Program-made: the position numbers and the translations under genes | The notes under the pieces: generated by a model | What the model saw: only the letters and a program-made list of their open reading frames with translations | The model's database searches: none | What the model was told of the DNA's origin: nothing | Shown: in pieces, positions 10,527 to 62,170 of the stretch | How the letters are laid out: each line of letters starts with the position of its first letter | Position numbering within the stretch: position 1 is the stretch's first letter | Origin: an uncultured virus (IMG/VR IMGVR_UViG_3300031758_009234) | Lineage: Duplodnaviria > Heunggongvirae > Uroviricota > Caudoviricetes | Strand: one strand, 5' to 3' | DNA: 64,000 bases | IMG/VR virus record: IMGVR_UViG_3300031758_009234 | Span: 1 to 64,000 of that record

Positions 10527-10700
10527 ATGGCTAAGAATGGGGATATAATTTTTCTTGAAAGAAGGCTTCAAGAATTATTAGAGAAGGAGGATTACGAAAG
10601 AGCTGCTATCGTAAAAAGATGGATTGATGAATTAACTATTTTTTACGATAAAAAAAAGAAAATTTTGGAAGATGATTTATCTAAAAACAAACAAAGATAA
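10527..10700 (+). CDS. small UVR-motif protein
   Basis: Not in the ORF track; MAKNGDIIFLERRLQELLEKEDYERAAIVKRWIDELT... Confidence 0.6.
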   Translation: MAKNGDIIFLERRLQELLEKEDYERAAIVKRWIDELTIFYDKKKKILEDDLSKNKQR

Positions 10701-10950
10701 TATAGTTTCAATTTCAAGAGAAAATATAAAAAGTCAACAAGATGAATTTCCTAGATACGTTGAATTTGTTGATAGTGTTATTATAGAAAGTTACGATTCA
10801 ATCGATACTTTGAAGTTTAAAGATATTAACCCTATAATTACAATAAACATAAATTCAACTATTCAATATAGAGTAGAGTACAAAGGTGATCCAGATGATT
10901 TTTTAAAATCAATTATTAGAGACAACAAACTAAACGATTTATTAAAATGA
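10672..10950 (+). CDS. hypothetical protein, C-terminal tag family
   Basis: Ends IIRDNKLNDLLK. Confidence 0.7.
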   Translation: MIYLKTNKDNIVSISRENIKSQQDEFPRYVEFVDSVIIESYDSIDTLKFKDINPIITININSTIQYRVEYKGDPDDFLKSIIRDNKLNDLLK

Positions 10951-11291
10951 TAAAAGGTAGAGTTCTTTATGATTCTGATATAAAAGATCATAATAAATTA
11001 GGAGTTTATGGTATTTTTGATACCAAAAAAGTAACTTGGGAATATTTTGTTATATCTTATATTTCTAAAAACAATGAAATATCATTAACGGCTGAAATAT
11101 GTACCTATGGAAATACAAAACCAACTTTTGATGATATTAAAAGATATGGGTTAAAAGTAAATGAAATTGAAGTTGGTAAAAAATTCATTTTAGATTATAA
11201 ATCTAAATGGGAAAGTGGATTAAATGTAACAACACAAGAAGATAGAGATAGAAAACTAAACGAAATTTTAGACAATGAGAACACTAACTGA
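10947..11291 (+). CDS. hypothetical protein, C-terminal tag family
   Basis: Ends DRDRKLNEILDNENTN. Confidence 0.7.
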   Translation: MIKGRVLYDSDIKDHNKLGVYGIFDTKKVTWEYFVISYISKNNEISLTAEICTYGNTKPTFDDIKRYGLKVNEIEVGKKFILDYKSKWESGLNVTTQEDRDRKLNEILDNENTN

Positions 11292-11526
11292 AATATACAA
11301 TAACAAATACGATGTAAGAGAATCAGAAATTCCTAGAGAGTTTTACAAAAGCTTTCAAGAATTCATGTTTGGATCAACTTGTTACAAAGACGATTCCTCT
11401 GGTGAGGATGAATTTGTTTATTACATATCAGATTTTAAAATGTGGTATAGACTTAACATAAAAGAAATAGAATTATACGAAAAAAGACAAGAAAGAGATG
11501 ATAAAATTAATAAATTATTAGATTAA
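11275..11526 (+). CDS. hypothetical protein, C-terminal tag family
   Basis: Ends ERDDKINKLLD. Confidence 0.7.
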   Translation: MRTLTEIYNNKYDVRESEIPREFYKSFQEFMFGSTCYKDDSSGEDEFVYYISDFKMWYRLNIKEIELYEKRQERDDKINKLLD

Positions 11527-31477: not shown

Positions 31478-32153
31478 AGTTTATATAAATGTTGCTGTGA
31501 TGGGTTCTGTTAATGAAGTTTTGACAAACCTATTAAATAGAATTAAAGATAGTAGTTTATACGAAAATTGTGATGTAATCAATTTAGTCATTAATGGTGA
31601 TATAAACTTATTAAAGGTGAATTTAGATGATCCTAAATATAAAATTTGGAATAAATATAAAGATACTTCATATAATGAGTTTCCAACTTTAGATCTAATT
31701 TGGAAACATTCACAAGACGAAGATTTCAATGTTCTTTATTTACACACAAAAGGAGTAAGTAGAAATCATCCTTTTATAACGGATTGGACTAATTACTTAT
31801 CTTATTTTAGTATAAATAAATGGGAAGATAGATTAGAAGAGTTAAAAGAGAATGATTGTACTGGTGTTAATTTAAGAGGTAATCCAGAAGATATCAAATT
31901 TCATCCTATGTATTGGGGATATGGTAAAGCCCCTAAACATTATTCTGGTAATTTTTGGTGGAGTAAATCTTCACATATTAAAAATTTATGTAATCCAATC
32001 ACTTGGATGCCTAATAATGATTATCTGAAATGGAGAATGATGTGTGAAATGTGGGTTTGTCAATTACCAGAATCAAAATACTATAATGCTCATACATCAG
32101 ATGTTGATCATTACCAAAATCCATATCCAGGAGAATTATATGAAACAGTTTAA
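31470..32153 (+). CDS. putative glycosyltransferase-like protein
   Basis: EFPTL, YLHTKGVS, HYSGNFWW motifs typical of proteins in viral glycan clusters. Confidence 0.6.
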   Translation: MNRVYINVAVMGSVNEVLTNLLNRIKDSSLYENCDVINLVINGDINLLKVNLDDPKYKIWNKYKDTSYNEFPTLDLIWKHSQDEDFNVLYLHTKGVSRNHPFITDWTNYLSYFSINKWEDRLEELKENDCTGVNLRGNPEDIKFHPMYWGYGKAPKHYSGNFWWSKSSHIKNLCNPITWMPNNDYLKWRMMCEMWVCQLPESKYYNAHTSDVDHYQNPYPGELYETV

Positions 32154-32301
32154 TCCCAGTGATGAGTTATCGAAGTTACTTTCTCAAGAATTAGCTAAGT
32201 CTATTGATAAAGAAATTATGAATGAACTATTTAGACTTTTTCCAAAAGTAACAATGAGTAGAAGAAATAAAATTAATAAAATATACAAAAAAGGTGATTA
32301 A
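32140..32301 (+). CDS. small protein with a capsid-like helix and the C-terminal tag
   Basis: MKQFNPSDELSKLLSQELAKSIDKEIMNEL...RRNKINKIYKKGD. Confidence 0.6.
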   Translation: MKQFNPSDELSKLLSQELAKSIDKEIMNELFRLFPKVTMSRRNKINKIYKKGD

Positions 32302-32306
32302 ATTAA

Positions 32307-32951
32307 TCACCTTTTTTTTCTCCAATGAGCAACTAAGTAGTTATCACCTATTAAATTATTATCAATAATAACTGGTGTATCAAAGTCTTCAAGTATTTTT
32401 GCTTTATTATAAAGAAACTCAATATCATAGAAGTTAAAATGAAATGTCATTGTAAATTCTTTAGATGTTACTTTTTGTTGTGAGTAATTAAATGTATTAT
32501 CACTTAAAGCTTTTAATATTATTTCATAAAATCGAATTATATAGATAGCATCTCTGTGTATATCAACACAAGTAATAGTAAATGGATAAAGAAATTGATT
32601 ATCTAAATCTAAATAGTGTTTTGTTACAATATCAAATAAAAGCCAATAATTTAAATCAGAGTCAACAGATCTAAAAGTTATTGTTAACTCGTGAGTTGTT
32701 GATATATCCTGAACATTTTTAGCAGGTTTGAATTGTCTTTCTTTACCTCTTGGTAGAACTTGTTTTGGTAAATCAATAGAAATACCTGGAAAGTTAACAG
32801 ATTTAATAGTAGAGTTAATATAATCTATTATATTTTCGTATTGAACCCAATTCTTTTCAAGAATAGGCTTATATGTCTCAACTAACTCTGGCTTTAAAAA
32901 GTTACTCGGTAAATTAAATATAAACTGACTGGACTGTGAACTTAACCTCAT
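32307..32951 (-). CDS. T4 tail tube/tube-terminator-like structural protein (gp19/gp3-like)
   Basis: IKSVNFPGISI, LTITFRSVDSDLNYW, FTMTF..Y pattern. Confidence 0.55.
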   Translation of the reverse strand: MRLSSQSSQFIFNLPSNFLKPELVETYKPILEKNWVQYENIIDYINSTIKSVNFPGISIDLPKQVLPRGKERQFKPAKNVQDISTTHELTITFRSVDSDLNYWLLFDIVTKHYLDLDNQFLYPFTITCVDIHRDAIYIIRFYEIILKALSDNTFNYSQQKVTSKEFTMTFHFNFYDIEFLYNKAKILEDFDTPVIIDNNLIGDNYLVAHWRKKR

Positions 32952-32968
32952 TTATTTATTATTAATTT

Positions 32969-35098
32969 TTATGGTTTTTTATTAGGTGTTGTTTGACCTG
33001 AAATTAACTTTCTAGTAACGATAGCAGTTTCTTTTGGCATCTTAGGATCTTTAATGATATCTGGTGCCTTAGGAGCTTCATTATTAAGAATTTGAATATT
33101 ATCAAGACTGTCGTAAATTTTAAATAATCCAGTATAAATAACTGTACTATTAGCACCTGTTGTACCAACAATATAAAAAATATTTACTTTAGCATCATAA
33201 ATCTTTTTAACATTTAAAAATTTAGATTCAGGTATTTTAAATACAACTTGTCCTAACTTTAAGTTTACTTCTTTTGATTCAGTCATCAATTTAAAATCAT
33301 GTGATGATGTATCATTTTTTATAACCATTTTAACTTCTGTAAAAGATGTTAAATCTAAATAGTCTGGTTGTGTACTAACACCACTTGCAATAACAAACTT
33401 CATTATGTTATCAAATGGATATATTAATACTTGTAATTTTCCAATACCATAGAAAGTTGTGCTATTAACTATTGAGTTTTCTGATTTTGCTATAATATTA
33501 AATCTATCAACAAAAACTGGAAAAGGTACTTTTACTTCTTGGACTTGTACATTTCCAGCACCACCGCCTCCACCAAGACCCGCTCCGTTTCCGCCACCAG
33601 CACCACCAGCGCCTGTGTTTACATTAGGATAACCACCATTTGGATTACCAGAACCACCCGCTCCGGTTCCTGTACCAGCACCTGTACCAACACCTGTACC
33701 AGCACCTGTACCAGCACCTGTACCAGTGCCTGTTCCGTTTCCAGTACCGGTTCCTAAACCATTTGTATTATTAATATTGTTTCCTTGATTTTGTAAAGCT
33801 AATAGATCTTTAAATGTTCCATTTGATCCAGAAAATAGTGCTTTTCCTATAGCTATTCCATTTTTATATCCAACACCTATTTGTTTTCCAAAATTTCTAC
33901 CAGATACAGAATTTGATTTACCTAAAGAGTTAGTATTCCCTAATAAAGCAGCATCTATATTATTTTTAATATTATAAACTTTTGGTTTTAATGCGTTATC
34001 TAAATTTATTTTAGATAAACGTATGCTATATTTGGTTATTTCATCTTGTAACATACCATAAGAAGCTCTTCTTAATATAAACGAATCATCAACTGAATCT
34101 ATAAGTCTCATTTCAACATCTATAATTGCGGTTGTTGTTGAGAATTTAATAATTGGTCTATAATCAACTGTTTCGTTAAAACCATCATTTATAGTAACTG
34201 TTGTCTTTTTACCTCTTATATTTTGCTCATAAGTAATAATATCATACTGAACATAGTATCTACGTCCTTCTCTTACAGAATCATCAATAAACTTTTTAAA
34301 CTCAGCAATATTATTATTATATGTTCCAAATATTTCAAAATAATCACCATCGGATGAGTGTTGAATTTTTAATCCTAATCTTTCAAATTCTGGTGTTTGT
34401 GGTAAAGTTGTCGTAACTTTAGTTCCTAAAATATAATTTGTTCTACCATTAATCGTCTCAATACCATCAACAAAGTAAAAATCTATGAAAATTGGAGATG
34501 TTGAGCTTAAACCAATACCATCCGTTAAATTAAAATTAATACTATTTTCTTTTGGATATTCTCCAGTTAGTTGAGCTGCAACTTCACTAACAGCTGGTAT
34601 ATCAATTGATATATTTTTACCCCATAGTTTTTCTTGAAAATAAAGTGGTGGTGCTGAATAATTTAGTAAATTTGATTGACTAGTATTAGTCATGTCAAAA
34701 AAGAAATTTGATAAATCAAAACTTATTGTATTTGTTCTATCAAATGTATAAACTTTAATATAAAAACCTAAATGCTCACCGAAAGTCCAGTTTACTGGAA
34801 TATGAATTTTAACTGTATCATGTCTGACTGGTATACCAACTGAATAGTCTTTATATTGTAAATATGAATAGTAAGTCGTATCAACTACTGAAAACTTACC
34901 TGATATTGCATCTAATCTAAAAAGTTGATTTGATGGTATATTACCAGAAACACCATCTGGATCACCAACGTATGATCTTCTTCTATCTCTTGAGTCAATT
35001 AATATTTGATATTTCTCAGCTATAAGATTACCATCATTATAAATATATTCTAATAATATATCTTTATCTAATTTTAAATATTTTGAAATCTTAGCCAT
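32969..35098 (-). CDS. large putative structural protein with a Gly-rich insertion
   Basis: 709 aa; TTAATATATA upstream; (GTGA)n tract. Confidence 0.6.
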   Translation of the reverse strand: MAKISKYLKLDKDILLEYIYNDGNLIAEKYQILIDSRDRRRSYVGDPDGVSGNIPSNQLFRLDAISGKFSVVDTTYYSYLQYKDYSVGIPVRHDTVKIHIPVNWTFGEHLGFYIKVYTFDRTNTISFDLSNFFFDMTNTSQSNLLNYSAPPLYFQEKLWGKNISIDIPAVSEVAAQLTGEYPKENSINFNLTDGIGLSSTSPIFIDFYFVDGIETINGRTNYILGTKVTTTLPQTPEFERLGLKIQHSSDGDYFEIFGTYNNNIAEFKKFIDDSVREGRRYYVQYDIITYEQNIRGKKTTVTINDGFNETVDYRPIIKFSTTTAIIDVEMRLIDSVDDSFILRRASYGMLQDEITKYSIRLSKINLDNALKPKVYNIKNNIDAALLGNTNSLGKSNSVSGRNFGKQIGVGYKNGIAIGKALFSGSNGTFKDLLALQNQGNNINNTNGLGTGTGNGTGTGTGAGTGAGTGVGTGAGTGTGAGGSGNPNGGYPNVNTGAGGAGGGNGAGLGGGGGAGNVQVQEVKVPFPVFVDRFNIIAKSENSIVNSTTFYGIGKLQVLIYPFDNIMKFVIASGVSTQPDYLDLTSFTEVKMVIKNDTSSHDFKLMTESKEVNLKLGQVVFKIPESKFLNVKKIYDAKVNIFYIVGTTGANSTVIYTGLFKIYDSLDNIQILNNEAPKAPDIIKDPKMPKETAIVTRKLISGQTTPNKKP
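33669..33728. repeat. 12-bp tandem repeat CCTGTACCAGCA x~5 encoding (GTGA)n
   Basis: Directly visible in the sequence. Confidence 0.85.
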
Positions 35099-40753: not shown

Positions 40754-41398
40754 TTATTTTTTAATGTATTCATATACATATTTTTTAAATCTCTTTTGAG
40801 TTTCTAAATCCATAGAAGAATAAACATTTTGAATCCAAGATACTTTTTTACCACCTCTCAAAACATCTAAAATATCATCATCACTCATTCCCACTTTTCT
40901 ACATTGAACAATAAATGAGTCAGCATAAGCCATAACTTCATCGGTTGAACTAAAATATTTCTTATGATCCACTGGTGATCTTTCTAAGTTTCTTATAGTT
41001 ACATCTGGTCTTCTTTGAGCTTGTTGTTTATGTACAGATTCGTGTCTTAATACTTCTTCCAAAAAGTCTAATAACCTATTCTTTAATGGACTATTAATAG
41101 ACTTTATAAACTCATTCTCATCTATACAGATATACATTTTATTAGTATAAACATTATGAGCTCCCCATCGAATACCACCCATTAATGGAGGCATATCAAC
41201 CGGAACCAACTCGATTTCCTTTTTTGTTTGTAGTTTAGATTTAAAGTATTCAACATCAACAAACTCAACATTCATATCATTGAATATCTCTTTTAAGTTA
41301 TCTAATGTTATGTTACTCATTGATCTAACTTTTTCAAGAGCTTCCGTGAAATCATATGGTTGAATTACAGCCTCATTAAATCTTTTCAAATATTTCAT
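40754..41398 (-). CDS. leader-family zincin-like metallopeptidase
   Basis: MKYLKRFNEA; HExxH in LRHESVHKQQ; downstream Glu in DEVMAYA. Confidence 0.7.
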   Translation of the reverse strand: MKYLKRFNEAVIQPYDFTEALEKVRSMSNITLDNLKEIFNDMNVEFVDVEYFKSKLQTKKEIELVPVDMPPLMGGIRWGAHNVYTNKMYICIDENEFIKSINSPLKNRLLDFLEEVLRHESVHKQQAQRRPDVTIRNLERSPVDHKKYFSSTDEVMAYADSFIVQCRKVGMSDDDILDVLRGGKKVSWIQNVYSSMDLETQKRFKKYVYEYIKK

Positions 41399-49649: not shown

Positions 49650-50551
49650 TTAAATATCAGATTTATATTTCCATATATAACCACCACTAGATTTTGATTT
49701 ACCAGTACAAACACTTCTTATACCCTGTGTCAATATACCCAAATCAACAGAGGCTGCTTTATATTCTCATACTCTTTTATGAAATTTCCATTTAAATCAT
49801 ATTGATATATCGGTTTGAATTTATCACCTCCTTTATTAAAACTAACCGGTGTTAGATCACCTTCAAATCTCCACACATATCCACCAACCATTTTAACTTT
49901 ATTCTTACAACATTTTGATATATTGCCATGTGATAGGTTATTTATTTTAGAAGCGTTATTTATTGAGGGGTAAATATTTATTAAATTCATATCAATATCA
50001 TACTGATAAACCGATTTACAGTCTTGTATTAAGATATCATTTAACTTTTGTTCTTCTGTTTTAGAATCCTCATATCTTTTATTAGATATTCTTAATTTAT
50101 CACGTTCTTCTTCTTTACTAAAACGTTCTTTAGCTTTAATACTCAATTCTTTCTTAGTTTCCTCTGATAGAATAAGTTTATAGTTTTTATACCTTTCAAT
50201 CTGTGATTCAGACATTTTTTTCTTTGTTTCATCGGACATTTTTTTATTCTTATTTCCACCTGAGTCCGTATTTGTCAGAGGATGTCCCTCACTTTTAAAT
50301 TTATCAATCCAATATATTTCTCTTTCGCATACCTCATTATATGATAATATATTCTCCTCAATTGACTCAATTATAGGTTTTAAACCATTTAATTTTAAAC
50401 TTTTAACCCAATTTGATTTATGAGATTTTGAGTTTTCCGAATAATGAGATTTAAGTCTTTGTTTTAAATCATTAAATGTTAATCCAATATATCTAATTTC
50501 ATTAGATATTGGGTCTATGAGCTTGTATATAGTATATTTTATTTCTTCCAT
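49650..50551 (-). CDS. GIY-YIG homing endonuclease with NUMOD3/NUMOD1; frameshift in the last NUMOD1
   Basis: YTIYKL..RYIGLT..RLKSH; the ORF stops at 49730 but another frame continues AASVDLGI..VCTGKSKSSGGYIWKYKSDI to 49650. Confidence 0.8.
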
Positions 50552-51652: not shown

Positions 51653-51681
51653 TAAAAAAAGAGAGAATTTAATTCTCTCTT

Positions 51682-51855
51682 TTATTTTGAATATATTTTT
51701 CTAATTTTAGATTGTCTATTTGAAATTATCCATCGTCTCAATTCTTCAATGAACAAATTATCTGGGTATATTCTACCATTATTCCTATTCATTCGATCAA
51801 ATTTTTGTAAAACTCCGTGTAAAATATATTTACCATCAACTATTTCTACTTTCAT
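51682..51855 (-). CDS. small protein with a prohead-protease-like fragment and the C-terminal tag
   Basis: Not in the ORF track; [61 protein letters not shown] overlap with dnaJ. Confidence 0.65.
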
Positions 51856-52922
51856 ACTTTAAATGTATTTGAGTTTTTAAACTTCTCTAAAATCATTCTT
51901 TCATCAAGTGGAATATCTTTTGGTATTTTCAAATTAAATTTTATATAAAGATCTCCTAAACCATAATTTAAGTCTGGAATACCTTTACCTGAAATTCTAA
52001 TTGTTTTCCCGTGTTCTGTTCCAGCTTCAACTAAAACCGGTATATCACCATGTGGTGTTGATACAGTTATATTATTACCACAAAGAGCATCTATAACAGA
52101 TATTGTTTTTTCTACAACTATATTATTACCTTCTCTTTTGAATGAGAAGTCTTGAGCTTCTTCTATAATAATAAAAAGATCACCTGGTATTCCATTTCTA
52201 ACATCATTTCCATTACCATTCATTTTCAACTGCATTCCATTTGAAACACCTGCTGGTACTTGAATATCAACTACTTGTTCTTGTAAAGTAGTACCATCTC
52301 CATGGCAATGATTACACTTATTGTGAATTTGTTCACCAGAACCTCCACAATCTGGACAATGTGTTTGAGTTCTTACTTGTCCAAATGGTGTATTTTGAAC
52401 AACAACTCTTTGTCCTGTTCCATTACAAACTAAACATTCTCTTACATCAGAACCTCCTTTTCCATCACAAGGATTACATTTTACTTGTCTTCTGTATTTT
52501 AATTTTTTAGTTGTTCCTTTAAGTATCTCATCAATATTAACAACAACTTTAATTCTTAAATCACCACCTTTTTTAGTTCTTTGTCTTTGTTGTTGTCTTC
52601 CACCAAAAGGATTACCACCAAAGATATCACCAAACTGTGAAAATATATCATCCATTGAAAATCCGTGACCACCACCAAATGGATTACCTCCTCCAAATGG
52701 ATTACCACCAGTTGAACCAAATCTATCATAACTCTGGCGTTTAGAAGGATCGCTAAGAGTTTCATAAGCTTCAGCCGCCTCTTTAAATTTAGCCTCTGCT
52801 TCTGGATTATTAGGATTTTTATCTGGATGAAACTGCATAGCCATCTTACGATAAGCTTTTTTAATTTCATCATCAGTTGCTCCTTTATTAACTCCTAAAA
52901 TAGTATAATAGTCTTTATTCAT
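51852..52922 (-). CDS. dnaJ: DnaJ chaperone
   Basis: J domain with HPD, G/F region, four CxxCxGxG repeats. Confidence 0.96.
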
Positions 52923-52934
52923 TTTTTAGATTTT

Positions 52935-53261
52935 TTATTTTAATATATTATTTAGTAATATGTCTCTTTTAATAGATTTAAGAGGTTCATTAAATCTTAT
53001 TTTTGTATTTGAATTATAATCAAACCAAAATGAATCATTTTCATAAGTAGTCCAATTATAATCTTTTTTTGTATGAAATCTTAAAATTGGTAGTTTATTC
53101 ATAATATCTCTACATAGTTCAATGATTTTATCTTCATCAAACTCTTCCTCATCTATTTTATTAACCTCATCACAAAAGTAGTCCATTACTTCACCAACAG
53201 TCTCATTAACTACTCTTAAATAGTTTTTATCTGTTCTAGTACTTTCGATATACCAATTCAT
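52935..53261 (-). CDS. hypothetical protein, C-terminal tag family
   Basis: Ends KRDILLNNILK. Confidence 0.65.
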   Translation of the reverse strand: MNWYIESTRTDKNYLRVVNETVGEVMDYFCDEVNKIDEEEFDEDKIIELCRDIMNKLPILRFHTKKDYNWTTYENDSFWFDYNSNTKIRFNEPLKSIKRDILLNNILK

Positions 53262-53794
53262 TTTAATGTCTTTTTAAGTTTCAAATCTCTTATCTCTAAT
53301 TTAATTTCATCATATGTTTTATTTCTACAATTAGAAATCATTTTGTTTATATAGTTTTGACAAACTAAGTTTAAAGTTTCTATACCCATATCTAAATACT
53401 TAAACTCTATTAAACAATTTTTAATTTTTGGTAGAAAGTCAACTAAATAGTTGATAAAATCATCAACATCCCAATATAGTTGAAATAATTCTAGCTTTTT
53501 ATCACCATATTCCGAGAAATTAAATAAAGTTGGTTTGTTTATAAAAACCATAGACCAAGTTTTTCTAATGGCTGGTATGATAAGTACTTCTAGTTCATCC
53601 TCATCATCACCAATTTTACCAGATAATAAACTAAAAACCTCAATTCTATTATCTAAAACATATTCTAAATCAGATTTAAGATTTGATTTTAATTCATCAT
53701 CAACACCAGTAAGCATAGAATCAACAAGACTTTGTTTATATAAGTCTTGTTGTAATAATTCTATAAAGCTTTTTTTGTTTACTGGTAAGTTCAT
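53258..53794 (-). CDS. hypothetical protein, C-terminal tag family
   Basis: Ends EIRDLKLKKTLK. Confidence 0.65.
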   Translation of the reverse strand: MNLPVNKKSFIELLQQDLYKQSLVDSMLTGVDDELKSNLKSDLEYVLDNRIEVFSLLSGKIGDDEDELEVLIIPAIRKTWSMVFINKPTLFNFSEYGDKKLELFQLYWDVDDFINYLVDFLPKIKNCLIEFKYLDMGIETLNLVCQNYINKMISNCRNKTYDEIKLEIRDLKLKKTLK

Positions 53795-54321
53795 TATTCA
53801 CCTAATATGATTTTAGGATATCTAAATGGTTTACCATCTAATGTATATCCCTTACTAACAACATCAACAATTTTCTTTTCACCAATTGGTAAAATTGATA
53901 TAACTTCGTGTAAATCAGTATCATACTCTTCAGTTTGAATAGTTTCAATTCCTTGACCTTTTAAAAACTTTTCAATTTTAGAAGCGATTAACTCAACACC
54001 TTCTCGAGCTGAATCATCTTTAATATTTTTGATTGCTAAAGAAATATCAGAGTCCATATCCAAAATAGAAGTAATCATAGAAACTTTTGTATTATTTCTT
54101 AATTCTTCTTTTTCTTTGATAACTCTTTTTTTATAGTTATCAAATTCAGCAGCTAATCTTAAATAATTATTATTTGATTCTTTTAATTGTTCTTCTAAAT
54201 GAGAAACGTGTAGTCTTGGATTATCTTCTAATACAATTTCTTCATTCTTACCAGTTAAGTCAAGACCAACTTTTTGATCATCAATTTTCATACTCTCTAC
54301 TTCAATCTTTTTATCTTCCAT
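53794..54321 (-). CDS. grpE: GrpE nucleotide exchange factor
   Basis: YLRLAAEFDNYKKR, DLHEVI, VSKGYTL. Confidence 0.93.
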   Translation of the reverse strand: MEDKKIEVESMKIDDQKVGLDLTGKNEEIVLEDNPRLHVSHLEEQLKESNNNYLRLAAEFDNYKKRVIKEKEELRNNTKVSMITSILDMDSDISLAIKNIKDDSAREGVELIASKIEKFLKGQGIETIQTEEYDTDLHEVISILPIGEKKIVDVVSKGYTLDGKPFRYPKIILGE

Positions 54322-56168: not shown

Positions 56169-56813
56169 ATGAGTAAATACCCAAGAACATATCATTTACC
56201 TTTCTCACCCGGTACTACCAATGATGATAGAATATCTGAGAGTGTTAAATCTATTTTGGGTATTGATATTATCATAACCGAAAAGTTAGATGGATCTAAC
56301 TCATCGATGATAAATGAGGGTGTCTTTGCTAGATCACATATAGATTTTTCTAAAAATCCATGGGATAATGAAGTTAGACAACTACACGAAATAAAAGTAA
56401 AAGGTAATTTAGAAGATGATGTTTTTTTATTCGGTGAGAATATGGAAGGCATTCATTCAATAGAATATACAAATTTAAAATCATACTTTTATTTATTTGG
56501 TGTTAGAGATAATAACATCTGGACACCTTGGAGTGTGGTTGAAGAATATTCTTACTTATTGGATTTACCACTTGTACCAGTTTTATTTAAAGGTATTGTA
56601 AATACCGAAAAAGAATTAAAAGACTTAGTTATGGGTTTTGTAACAGAACAATCTGAATTAGGTGGATCAAGAGAAGGTATTGTCGTAAGAAATGCTGGTG
56701 TGTTTCATAATGATAATTTCTCGGATAATGTAATGAAATGGGTTAGAAAAGGTCATGTTCAGACAGATGAACATTGGACCAAGAATTGGAAAAAATCAAA
56801 TATAAATTATTAA
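56169..56813 (+). CDS. RNA ligase (Rnl2-like adenylyltransferase domain)
   Basis: TEKLDGSN (motif I), FGEN, EGIVVR, KWVR. Confidence 0.85.
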   Translation: MSKYPRTYHLPFSPGTTNDDRISESVKSILGIDIIITEKLDGSNSSMINEGVFARSHIDFSKNPWDNEVRQLHEIKVKGNLEDDVFLFGENMEGIHSIEYTNLKSYFYLFGVRDNNIWTPWSVVEEYSYLLDLPLVPVLFKGIVNTEKELKDLVMGFVTEQSELGGSREGIVVRNAGVFHNDNFSDNVMKWVRKGHVQTDEHWTKNWKKSNINY

Positions 56814-57791: not shown

Positions 57792-59015
57792 ATGTACAAT
57801 ATACCAACATATAACGAAGCTGTCAAACTAACTCAAGGTAAAAGATATGTACCTGAGATAGATCAATATTTAGACGCTGCTTTCTACGAGGCTAAACTTG
57901 TAGTTGATGGGTATAATGTATCTATATTCAACTATCGTTTAGCAACTTACAATGACTTTAAATACAACGATGCTTTTGAATTAAGAGGTTTAGTTTACGT
58001 CTTTAATGAAGATGGTTCTGTGTATAAATCATATAGATTGTTACATAAATTTTTCAACTTAAACCAAGTTGAAGAAACTCAATACTCTTTAGTAAAAGAT
58101 CGAGTTGTTAAATCTGTTTTCAATAAAGAAGATGGTTCTATTGGTTCTTTCATAAAATTACCAAACGGAAATGTTGTTGCTAAATCTAAAATGTCTTTTG
58201 AATCAGACCAAGCTTATGGTATGAACAAAATATACAACTCTAACGCAGATATAAAAAGATTTGTTGATTGGTCATTAGATAACGATTTAGTTGCTGTATT
58301 TGAGTATGTGGCTCCACACAACCGTATAGTTTTAAAATATGATAAAGAAGAATTAATCTTATTAAGATTAAGAAGAAACTCTACTGGTGAATACTTAAAC
58401 CTCCACGATTATTCAGATGTTATAGGTGATTTAAAAACTGCTGAGTCTTTTGATCTATCATTAGATGAATTGGTTGAATTGGCTAAAACTGTTGAAGGTG
58501 TTGAAGGTTGGGTAGTTGACTTAGATGGTTTATTTGTTAAAATAAAAACTGTTTGGTATTGTGAAAGACATGGTCTTTTAACAGAAGACTTGTATCGTGA
58601 AAACATACTAGTTAAATACATATTAGATGATAAAATAGATGATGTCTTAGGTCAAATCCCAGAAGATGAAAAAGAAGCACACGCTCGTATAGAAAAAATA
58701 ATAGCGGCTGTCTCTAAGGCAGTTAAAATGAAAGTTGATTCTATATTAGAAGATTGGAAAGTGTTTCAAACTATGGCTGATGGTAAAGATTGGACTGGTG
58801 ATTTAAAAGATCAACTAATGAGAAAGTCTTATGCTATGAAGTATAAGAAAACTAAAAATTTTGGAGCTGTGATGTCTATGGCGAAAGGTAACGATGTCTA
58901 TGATATAGTTACTGAACAAATAGCTAAGGAAACTTTTAGATTACAAAATGCGAGAGCGTTTTTATTTCAAATAGATCCAACTCTAAACTTTAAAGATGGT
59001 GAAATAGAAGATTAA
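57792..59015 (+). CDS. T4 RNA ligase 1-like
   Basis: ELRGLV, HKFFNLN, KEDGS (motif I), FEYVAPHNRIV, EGWVV, VKIKT. Confidence 0.9.
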   Translation: MYNIPTYNEAVKLTQGKRYVPEIDQYLDAAFYEAKLVVDGYNVSIFNYRLATYNDFKYNDAFELRGLVYVFNEDGSVYKSYRLLHKFFNLNQVEETQYSLVKDRVVKSVFNKEDGSIGSFIKLPNGNVVAKSKMSFESDQAYGMNKIYNSNADIKRFVDWSLDNDLVAVFEYVAPHNRIVLKYDKEELILLRLRRNSTGEYLNLHDYSDVIGDLKTAESFDLSLDELVELAKTVEGVEGWVVDLDGLFVKIKTVWYCERHGLLTEDLYRENILVKYILDDKIDDVLGQIPEDEKEAHARIEKIIAAVSKAVKMKVDSILEDWKVFQTMADGKDWTGDLKDQLMRKSYAMKYKKTKNFGAVMSMAKGNDVYDIVTEQIAKETFRLQNARAFLFQIDPTLNFKDGEIED

Positions 59016-60289: not shown

Positions 60290-62170
60290 ATGGCAAAAGA
60301 CGTAATTATTGGAATTGACTTAGGAACAACTAACTCGTGTGTAGCAGTAGTTGAAGGTGGTGAACCAATCGTAATCAGTAATGCTGAAGGTAAAAGAACA
60401 ACTCCTTCTATTATTTCATTTACAGAAAATGATAGAAAGATTGGTGATCCAGCAAAAAGACAAGCGGTTACTAACCCTAAAAAAACTATCTACTCAATTA
60501 AAAGATTTATTGGTAAAGATTTTAATGTTTGTAAAGATGAGGTAACTAGAGTACCTTATGAAGTAGTTTCAAACGGAGCTAATGTACCTACTGTTAAAAT
60601 CGATGATAGAAATTATACTCCACAGGAGTTATCAGCAATGATTCTTCAAAAGATGAAGAAAACAGCTGAAGATTATTTAGGATATGAAGTGAAAAGAGCG
60701 GTTATTACCGTACCAGCTTACTTCGGTGATGCTGAGAGAACTGCAACTATTGAGGCTGGTGAAATCGCTGGTTTAAAAGTTGAAAGAATTATCAACGAAC
60801 CTACAGCAGCGGCTTTAGCGTATGGTTTAGATAAGAAAAACACAGACTCTAAAATTTTAGTATTTGACTGTGGTGGTGGTACTCATGACGTTTCTGTGTT
60901 AGAGATTGGTGATGGTGTATTTGAAGTAAAATCTACTGACGGTGATACTCACTTAGGTGGTGACGACTTTGATAATGCAATTATTACTTGGATGGTTGAA
61001 GAATTCAAATCTGAAAACTCTATGGATTTATCAAAAGATCCTATGGCTTTACAAAGATTGAAAGATGCGGCTGAAAAAGCTAAAATTGAATTATCTTCTA
61101 CATCTGAAAGTGAAATTAACTTACCTTACATCACAGCTAGAGACGGAATGCCTCTTCACTTTGTTAAGAAATTAACTAAGGCTAAATTTGAACAATTAAC
61201 TTCATCTTTAGTTGATAGAGCTATCAGTTGTGCTAAATCAGCTTTGAAAAACGCAGGTTTAAAACCAGCTGATATTGACGAAGTTATCTTAGTAGGTGGT
61301 TCTACAAGAATTCCAGCAATTCAAGATGCTATTGAAAGTTATATTGGTAAGAAACCAAACAAATCCGTGAACCCTGATGAAGTTGTTGCTTTAGGTGCGG
61401 CTATTCAAGGAGCTGTTTTAACCGGTGGTATTACTGACGTTTTACTTTTAGATGTTACTCCACTTTCTTTAGGTATTGAAACAATGGGTGGTGTGTTTAC
61501 TAAATTAATTGAAGCAAACACTACTATTCCAACTAAGAAAAGTGAAACATTCTCAACAGCATCCGATAATCAACCTTCAGTAGAATTACACGTTTTACAA
61601 GGTGAAAGAGCGATGGCTAAAGACAACCGAACTTTAGGTCGTTTCCACTTAGATGGTATCATGCCAGCTCCAAGAGGAATTCCTCAAATCGAGGTGACTT
61701 TTGATATAGATGCTAATGGTATCTTATCTGTACACGCTAAAGATAAGGCAACTGGTAAAGAAAATAAAATCCGTATCGAAGGTGGTTCTCAATTAACTAA
61801 AGAAGAAATTGAGAAAATGAAAGCTGAGGCTGAGGCAAATGCTGAAGCAGATGCTAAAGAAAGAGAGTTAGTTGATAAAATAAACTCAGCAGACTCAATG
61901 ATTTTCCAAACCGAAAAACAAATTAAAGAGTTTGATGAAAAATTAACAGCTGATGATAAGAATGCTTTGAACGCTGACCTTGACGAATTGAAGAAAGCTC
62001 ATTCCGATAAAGATGTTCAAAGAATTGATGAATCAATCAGTAAGTTAAACTCGACTTGGAATACAATTTCAACTAAGTTGTATGAACAAAGTCAAACTGA
62101 ACAAACAACAGAAAATACTTCCAGTGGTAATGATGGAGTAGATGATGTTGATTTTGAAGAAGTAAAATAA
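60290..62170 (+). CDS. dnaK: DnaK/Hsp70
   Basis: [38 protein letters not shown]. Confidence 0.98.

Follow-up and report, generated by a model that had tools for sequence, protein, structure and literature searches.

A tagged mini-gene following dnaJ in freshwater megaphages and its relation to the N-terminal segment of T4-type prohead proteases

The window, i.e., the whole stretch of 64,000 nucleotides that was analysed, makes up most of a 76,909-base viral record (G000) and is AT-rich, with a GC content of 0.24–0.34 per 2 kb. The named genomes closest to it are those of two uncultured phages, 634,780 and 642,428 bases long (~71% identity over 68–78% of a 2.7-kb query). Contigs at least 99% alike over the region considered here were found in two further runs, labelled freshwater/aquatic, from two studies. 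The relatives used for comparison were G001 (the same phage as the window), G002 (385 kb), G003 (344 kb, GC 36.6%), W01, W02 and the locus L076. The region carries a chaperone operon on the minus strand that ends with a mini-ORF; this mini-ORF belongs to a group of freshwater megaphages. Its features and those of its neighbourhood are as follows.

51657..51683, both strands: bidirectional terminator-like hairpin of 12 pairs, directly 3' of the mini-ORF (terminator scan).
51682..51855, minus strand: mini-ORF of 57 aa, stop codon at 51682–51684 (ORF list, conserved relatives).
51691..51717, minus strand: C-terminal tag R47-Q-S-K-I-R-K-I-Y55, followed by S-K-stop (tag census, logo).
51718..51762, minus strand: residues 32–46, first part of a long helix; a linker of variable length in the family (family alignment, AF2).
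51763..51855, minus strand: body, residues 1–31, a beta-hairpin (2–6, 9–13) and a loop (AF2 model, protease profile matches).
51763..51789, minus strand: loop N-R-N-N-G-R-I-Y-P, homologous, with the body, to the N-terminal segment of S77 prohead proteases.
51852..51855, minus strand: ATGA in which the dnaJ stop and the mini-ORF start overlap, i.e., translational coupling (sequence; same arrangement in L076).
51852..52922, minus strand: dnaJ, complete type I with J domain, Zn finger and C-terminal domain (Pfam DnaJ_C 3.5e-38, DnaJ 2.3e-29).
52935..53261, minus strand: conserved protein of 108 aa with the tag variant K-R-D-I-L-L-N-N-I-L-K (tag Arg invariant in 11/11 orthologues).
53258..53794, minus strand: conserved all-helical protein of 178 aa with the tag I-R-D-L-K-L-K-K-T-L-K (orthologues, predicted model).
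53794..54321, minus strand: grpE (Pfam GrpE 3.2e-24).
60290..62170, plus strand: dnaK (Hsp70) (match G000 60305–62083, E 7.8e-250).

The mini-ORF, whose product is [57 protein letters not shown], lies where the initial annotation had placed it, contains both peptides quoted there and is coupled to dnaJ, as had been stated, through the ATGA overlap. The hairpin that follows, with its T run, provides the sole terminator-like sites of the segment 51300–56300 (two, one per strand, formed by the same hairpin). Since no other such hairpin occurs within 5 kb, the mini-ORF is the final gene of the chaperone operon. The 108-aa and 178-aa proteins encoded between dnaJ and grpE belong to families that are both old and in which the tag Arg is among the few invariant columns (7 in one family and 11 in the other). 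The model of the 178-aa protein is confident and all-helical (pLDDT 86.6, pTM 0.83); Foldseek gave no match for it in PDB and BFVD (best E 0.4 and 0.22), and neither of the two proteins has a credible PDB profile match or anything usable in the ESM Atlas. DnaK is encoded by all five genomes searched for it and ClpP by three of five, G002 being devoid of a ClpP gene.

Several other genes are found nearby. The space between the chaperone operon and dnaK contains two RNA ligase genes (56169–56813 and 57792–59015, plus strand), which differ in family (Pfam RNA_ligase 5.5e-25, RNA_lig_T4_1 4.8e-20). A free-standing GIY-YIG/NUMOD1 homing endonuclease gene (49730–50551, minus strand) is located 1.1 kb from the mini-ORF, beside a conserved 266-aa gene matching a head-tail adaptor family (phrog_211, 3.4e-12). 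The minus-strand segment 48653–49618 holds a 321-aa ORF that carries tandem S-W-G-G-A-E-P-K-P repeats in an acidic region and has no Pfam family.

In the 27% GC DNA that surrounds the mini-ORF, the length of the open frame carries no significance by itself, and the status of the mini-ORF as a gene is therefore decided by conservation. A word-indexed search retrieved four relatives of 57–61 aa (75–98% identity), and an exhaustive search that covered 1.84 billion representatives, whatever their length, retrieved 13 matches at E ≤0.001, 12 of which are proteins of 48–64 aa with 42–82% identity. Altogether, 16 intact relatives (48–64 aa, 42–98% identity) keep the frame, and profile searches of genomes revealed more copies of the mini-gene in G002 and W01. 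The database names of the family members are all 'hypothetical protein', except for one evidently wrong label. All 12 small relatives examined follow one plan: G-[IV]-[LF]-x-x-F, then N-R-N-N-G-R-I-Y-P, a linker bearing indels and a tail built on R-x-x-K-I. In the family alignment (A2), the invariant columns are F19, N23, G27, R28 and Y30 in the body and R47, K50 and I51 in the tag, on either side of the indel-rich linker. The 13th match (P0006) is a large repeat protein of 1416 aa, 12 stretches of which resemble the mini-protein (E 1.3e-11) and which has V-D-G-K-[FY] ... F-x-x-M-N ... G in common with it; this likeness was treated as chance amplified by repetition and P0006 was taken to be unrelated. 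A degenerate DNA pattern of the body motif matched only three identical contigs, and locus searches with P0002 and P0005 yielded L075 as the only new match (27 residues, in the tag region).

The L076 relative (78% identical) occupies the same place after dnaJ and differs from the window by three indels, all in frame. It is also the closest relative with DNA. Against it, the mini-ORF shows a dN/dS of 0.75 (5 synonymous and 17 non-synonymous changes) vs 0.05–0.20 for four neighbouring genes, and a dS of 0.185 vs 0.47–1.17, which indicates that the flanks of the protein evolve fast and that the constraint is loose outside of the core. The core itself, [12 protein letters not shown] (51763–51810, minus strand), is identical in both, silent sites included. 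An RNA element behind this silent-site identity was sought, with no Rfam match at threshold and an unremarkable folding (z-score −1.13). Between the window and an independent aquatic sample, the sole difference in 978 bases is a G to T change at 51714, which turns Q48, a free position of the tag, into K. Of the intact conservation that the initial annotation proposed to look for, the open frame is found and the decay typical of a pseudogene is not (16 relatives in frame, indels in frame only), while the dN/dS is high outside of the core. The two metatranscriptome runs searched, whose libraries may contain DNA, each contained one contig of 200–237 nt inside dnaJ and no contig on the mini-ORF.

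The distribution of the mini-gene is sporadic: it is present in G001, G002 and W01 and absent from W02, G003 and five further related contigs, the last five of which did not yield the parent protease either. The mini-gene is therefore dispensable. Judged by this comparative evidence, the mini-ORF is a real, conserved accessory gene.

No paralogue of the mini-protein was detected by tblastn in the window (next best E 0.18), and PF03420 (Peptidase_S77) has no match in the 76.9-kb record, so the proteases of relatives were used to trace its origin. The A2 profile matches the N-termini of the protease-scaffold ORFs of W02 (E 6.5e-6), G002 (E 3.1e-5) and W01 (E 9.2e-5), which are 699–727 aa long and themselves match phrog_207 (head maturation protease) at E 1e-29 to 1e-33. 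As only the profile positions 6–48 are covered, the tag plays no part in these matches. The profile is colinear with all seven proteases tried over their residues ~21–70, with 15–25 bits (phiN3 24.7, X1 22.8, W02 20.2, KP27 18.3, G002 17.2, W01 16.4, S-8S53 15.1). Among the 13 family members, eight match phrog_207 (best E 1e-4) and four match PF03420 below threshold (best E 0.021). Using tblastn, a first member hit annotated prohead protease/core genes in 33 of the best 40 of 152 records (E 0.3–6), 17 Mycobacterium phage records being among the remaining 112, and a second member hit such genes in 20 of 24 rows. The window protein alone gives nothing in Pfam at E up to 1, hence does not reach the gathering score of PF03420, and has only phrog_207 at E 0.091 in PHROGs. 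The likeness to proteases is therefore real at the level of the profile and not at that of the single sequence.

Searches against structures speak against this origin. A PDB profile search ranks T4 gp21 (5jbl, E 0.48) under cholesterol oxidases (E 0.15). The AF2 model of the mini-protein obtained with the family alignment (mean pLDDT 76.9) shows the hairpin (2–6, 9–13), the loop that bears the signature and a single helix (32–56) running into the tag. Its best match in PDB has an E of 6.9 with Foldseek, and a wide VIA-align search gave only generic helices (best Z 3.2). A phmmer search of PDB with the G002 protease domain found nothing. In the ESM Atlas, clusters of 64–70-aa viral proteins carry PF03420 on 32–51% of their members, and the nearest cluster (58 aa, 158 members) carries YonD_N on 35% of them; both are leads only. 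YonD_N was not matched in the Pfam searches, whose copy of Pfam may not include this family, and the literature retrieved for YonD consists of clinical trials only.

The initial annotation had described a prohead-protease N-terminal strand, loop and helix devoid of a catalytic core and fused to a common tag, and this anatomy holds, the match to gp21-type proteases being significant with the family profile. It had also stated that T4-like proteases begin with the motif; the motif does occur in them but lies 20–70 residues in, in the seven that were aligned. The family carries the strand-loop-helix with its N-R-N-G-R-x-Y-P signature and, in the detail of the motif, has N-G-R-I-Y-P, like other T4-like proteases, where the megaphage proteases have N-E-R-[IV]-Y-T. 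The small core proteins encoded beside gp21 in four phages (gp67/gp68 positions) score at most 1.7 bits with the mini family. The invariant stretches G-E-F-D-H-P-D and S-S-R-A-A-G of the parents (H72 and S127/S128), which presumably hold the catalytic His and Ser (T4 numbering), lie beyond the end of the alignment. The 57-aa protein thus covers residues ~21–60 of its parents, lacks the His and Ser of a fold of ~200 residues, and is a homologue of a protease piece and not a protease. Its body descends from approximately the first 40 residues of the T4-type (S77) prohead protease fold and includes no catalytic part.

In the megaphages, the prohead protease (L042, i.e., G002 32744–34882, and L040 and L041) continues into a scaffold-like part of ~480 aa that contains many 14-residue repeats. 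Over the first 240 residues of the protease, the best 120 of 1579 database relatives are 86–100% identical.

The second half of the mini-protein ends in a motif that it shares with many other proteins, as the initial annotation had supposed. The tag has the consensus R-[DNE]-x-K-[IL]-x-x-[IL]-[LFY] and is helical; the mini-protein carries R-x-x-K-[IL]-x-x-[IL]-[LFYW] within 10 residues of its C-terminus (R47–Y55, two residues before the stop). A census was made with the pattern R-x-x-K-[IV]-x-x-[ILM]-[YFLWI] within 8–10 residues of the stop in ORFs of at least 35–40 aa, Markov shuffles serving as null. It found 26 tagged ORFs in G002 (0–3 in 8 shuffles), 10 in G003 (0–3 in 8 shuffles) and, among ORFs of at least 40 aa, 3 in G000 (mean 0.175 and maximum 1 in 40 shuffles). 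In G002, the pattern also occurs 10 times internally. A slightly looser pattern retrieves 34 ORFs in G002 and 7 in G000, and the logo of these 41 is R-[D19 N7 K6 E5]-x-K-[I29 L12]-x-x-[I32 L7]-[L25 F8 I5 Y3]-[KND], the stop following directly in 18 of them. Several synonymous codons are used at the I and L positions, which indicates that the tag is selected as protein. The tail is a genuine recurrent C-terminal motif borne by dozens of otherwise unrelated small proteins. The protease-scaffold protein does not end in it, and most tagged genes lie far from the chaperone operon (~30 are located elsewhere). A role as membrane anchor was considered and set aside, as the hydrophobic face has only three residues and the Arg and Lys are invariant. 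In full-text literature searches, tagged fragment proteins of phages were nowhere described.

Most tagged proteins have no match in PHROGs or Pfam. A working class was defined by a length of at most 100 aa and a body like a segment of a larger phage protein, and the mini-protein has both properties. In the window, two further tagged loci contain such bodies.

32140..32301, plus strand: tagged mini-ORF of 53 aa from the ATG at 32140, with a capsid-like body (tag census).
10672..11526, plus strand: array of three overlapping tagged ORFs of 92, 114 and 83 aa (looser tag pattern).

The body of the former resembles a helix of T4-type major capsid proteins (Pfam Gp23 E 0.0055, phrog_138 E 0.0089) and that of the last ORF of the array (11275–11526) resembles RegA, the T4 translational repressor (Translat_reg E 0.0072, phrog_242 E 0.012); these matches are sub-threshold and, in both cases, the two libraries agree. 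In G002, three tandem tagged mini-genes with nearly identical tags carry a capsid piece (Pfam Gp23 E 0.01; Smith-Waterman score 58 to the ORF adjoining the protease, shuffle maximum 50), a protease N-terminal piece (phrog_207 E 4.9e-4) and a portal piece (Pfam Portal_T4 E 0.0034, phrog_213 E 0.0038). G002 also encodes a second kind of protease-derived tagged mini-protein (41205–41381, minus strand, 58 aa) that copies residues 132–163 of its own protease (15 of 31 positions identical, score 64 vs a null maximum of 53). In W01, the protease mini-gene lies inside an array of coupled tagged genes and is adjoined by a 48-aa peptidoglycan-binding snippet with a tag-like end (L067 1656–1802, plus strand; PG_binding_1, 5.3e-5). 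The 14-residue repeat of the protease-scaffold proteins forms the body of the tagged mini-genes found after dnaJ in two relatives. Small tagged proteins thus often look like pieces of T4-core proteins; single matches are mostly weak and it is the pattern that counts, although the recognition of conserved motifs only may be a detection bias.

The slot that follows dnaJ deserves separate consideration. Of 23 distinct lineages, 10 have a tagged ORF of at most 100 aa that starts no more than 700 nt past dnaJ, in eight of them directly at the dnaJ stop. The bodies found there are the protease piece (window and L076), a fibre-like N-terminal piece (phrog_8309, best E 1.3e-5), the scaffold repeats, a tail-fibre C-terminal piece (phrog_9942, E 1.2e-4) and one body without assignment. 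With the strict pattern, 14 of the 23 lineages have at least one tagged ORF on the grpE side, i.e., in the 1.3 kb upstream of dnaJ. The protease mini-gene is not bound to the slot after dnaJ, its distance from dnaJ being ~17 kb in G002 and ~145 kb in W01. Thus, either the slot is a hot spot at which cassettes are exchanged, or production together with DnaJ is of importance there.

The arrangement of two conserved epitopes on either side of a free linker points to an adaptor, one end of which would bind the partner of the protease's N-terminal module and the other the reader of the tag. In the reading favoured here, which is tentative and has somewhat less than an even chance, the mini-protein would be a non-catalytic mimic, docked through its tag, that acts on the head assembly of its own phage, possibly via the phage Hsp70 system. 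Its action could be viewed as follows: the protease-derived face would occupy the surface that the protease-scaffold module contacts in the prohead core, the tag helix would dock the mini-protein to a common reader, for which the phage DnaK/DnaJ/GrpE would be the best lead, and the protease-scaffold protein would be held back or chaperoned until proheads are built. DnaK prefers extended hydrophobic peptides and the tag is an amphipathic helix, which counts against an Hsp70 reader, as does the location of most tagged genes outside of the chaperone operon; the tags borne by all non-chaperone genes of this operon in most lineages, the tagged mini-genes of the slot after dnaJ, with at least four kinds of body, and the DnaK encoded by every genome searched nevertheless make it the best lead. 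According to a review (PMC9958956), T4 gp21 is a pentamer of the prohead core whose active site stays blocked by the extreme N-terminus until the removal of nine residues by cleavage. Since the mini-protein lacks this extreme N-terminus and matches the next segment, interference with subunit or core contacts, or their chaperoning, is favoured over inhibition of the active site. A target outside of the phage's own assembly would fit equally well, as the A2 profile scores the gp21 of phiN3 at least as high as the megaphage proteases (24.7 vs 16–20 bits). Extended to all tagged genes, the proposal becomes that of a tag-addressed library of peptide mimics, i.e., snippets of the phage's own core proteins (protease, scaffold, capsid, portal, fibre, endolysin, RegA) joined to a docking helix that would be read by a single reader, possibly the phage Hsp70; this extension is possible but rather unlikely.

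Two other readings would keep the same mimicry with another target. The initial annotation saw in the mini-protein an immune decoy or bait that imitates a pattern seen by a host sensor, the tag sending the sensor to sequestration or degradation. This is unlikely, even though the best-conserved residues of prohead proteases are retained in the body and sister mini-proteins copy pieces of capsid and portal proteins, which are ligands of known defence sensors. The ClpP genes of three of the five genomes would also suit such a degradation, but G002 bears ~30 tags and no ClpP. Moreover, the endolysin, RegA-like and fibre bodies make the tagged class wider than the known defence triggers, and the apparent restriction to conserved motifs may reflect the detection bias mentioned above. 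Prohead proteases themselves are reported in a preprint (PMC12991175) to trigger CBASS through their cleavage activity, which speaks for proteases as triggers, but sensing by cleavage could not be imitated by a non-catalytic fragment.

The other reading makes the mini-protein a weapon against co-infecting T4-like phages: a dominant-negative fragment would poison the prohead core of the rival, whereas the phage's own diverged protease would escape. It draws on the N-G-R-I-Y-P motif, which the mini family shares with other T4-like proteases and not with those of the megaphages, and on the higher profile scores of the phiN3 and X1 gp21. The differences in score are small, however, and the second protease fragment of G002 is nearest to G002's own protease. 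This reading is about as unlikely as that of a decoy.

It is quite improbable that the tag is a capsid-loading signal and the mini-protein a cargo packed and ejected with the DNA. Varied bodies, many of them from head proteins, a variable linker and a conserved 10-residue C-terminal peptide form an architecture that resembles that of cargo-loading peptides, but the protease-scaffold protein itself has no terminal tag. The same low probability is given to a by-product of cassette shuffling, in which a recombining mini-gene whose 3' end is the tag would capture gene fragments as functionless bodies. The different bodies of the slot after dnaJ, the nearly identical tags of the three tandem G002 mini-genes, the homing endonuclease gene 1.1 kb away, the dN/dS of 0.75 and the sporadic distribution all agree with shuffling. 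Against it, members that share 42–55% identity have retained an open frame in AT-rich DNA full of stops, together with the signature residues of the parent, and the Atlas clusters of 64–70-aa viral proteins with S77 on 32–51% of their members, although a lead only, point in the same direction. That the mini-ORF is what remains of a decaying second protease gene, or an ORF that arose by chance, as the short length and the lack of a Pfam match might suggest, is hardly credible given the 16 intact relatives of the same size over a wide range of identity, with in-frame indels only and a conserved tag.

Of the hundreds of small genes of unassigned role that huge phages carry, one now has a clear origin (the front end of the head-maturation protease) and a clear grammar (body, linker, tag), which recurs on ~30 genes of G002. 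Should the tag have one reader, its discovery would at once place a large block of megaphage dark matter in a pathway. Bodies that act by mimicry, if this is how they work, would amount to peptide inhibitors or adaptors that evolved naturally against conserved phage machines, of value for the understanding of head assembly and as tools. If the mimic library is real, it would let the phage govern or safeguard how its own large complexes are assembled, by a regulation that has not been described for viruses.

Among known systems, T4 gp21 (Peptidase S77, PF03420, PDB 5JBL) is close to the mini-protein, residues 6–42 of which are colinear with the N-terminal strand-loop-helix of gp21-type proteases, N-R-N-(N)-G-R-I-Y-P included. 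Unlike these proteases, it has 57 aa instead of ~210–700, stops before the presumed catalytic stretches and carries a tag that these proteases lack. MicroProteins and interference peptides, such as LITTLE ZIPPER and Id proteins, are small proteins derived from one interaction-competent piece and devoid of the functional domain. The mini-protein likewise corresponds to one piece of a larger protein without its functional domain, but it adds a second, common address motif, belongs to a phage, and its binding to the parent or its partners is only putative. Stand-alone propeptide-like protease inhibitors (MEROPS I9, I29) are free small homologues of the N-terminal part of proteases, as is the mini-protein. 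In T4 gp21, the block consists, according to the review (PMC9958956), of the first nine residues, whereas the mini-protein aligns from about residue 21 of its parents.

The tag, for its part, is basic, C-terminal and has an aliphatic end. In this, it is like the MuA-type ClpX recognition signal, a basic C-terminal peptide ending in aliphatic residues, but its conserved Arg and Lys and the i/i+3/i+4 spacing of its hydrophobic residues point to a helix. No unfoldase was found to be linked to the tag, and G002 is tagged without encoding ClpP. Encapsulin cargo-loading peptides and the coat-binding C-terminus of the P22 scaffolding protein are short terminal address peptides, from which the tag differs in sequence. 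The T4 capsid targeting sequence differs from the C-terminal tag in being N-terminal and cleaved off, according to the same review (PMC9958956). What the tag shares with short terminal address peptides is its nature: a short, conserved terminal peptide carried by many unrelated bodies in one genome.
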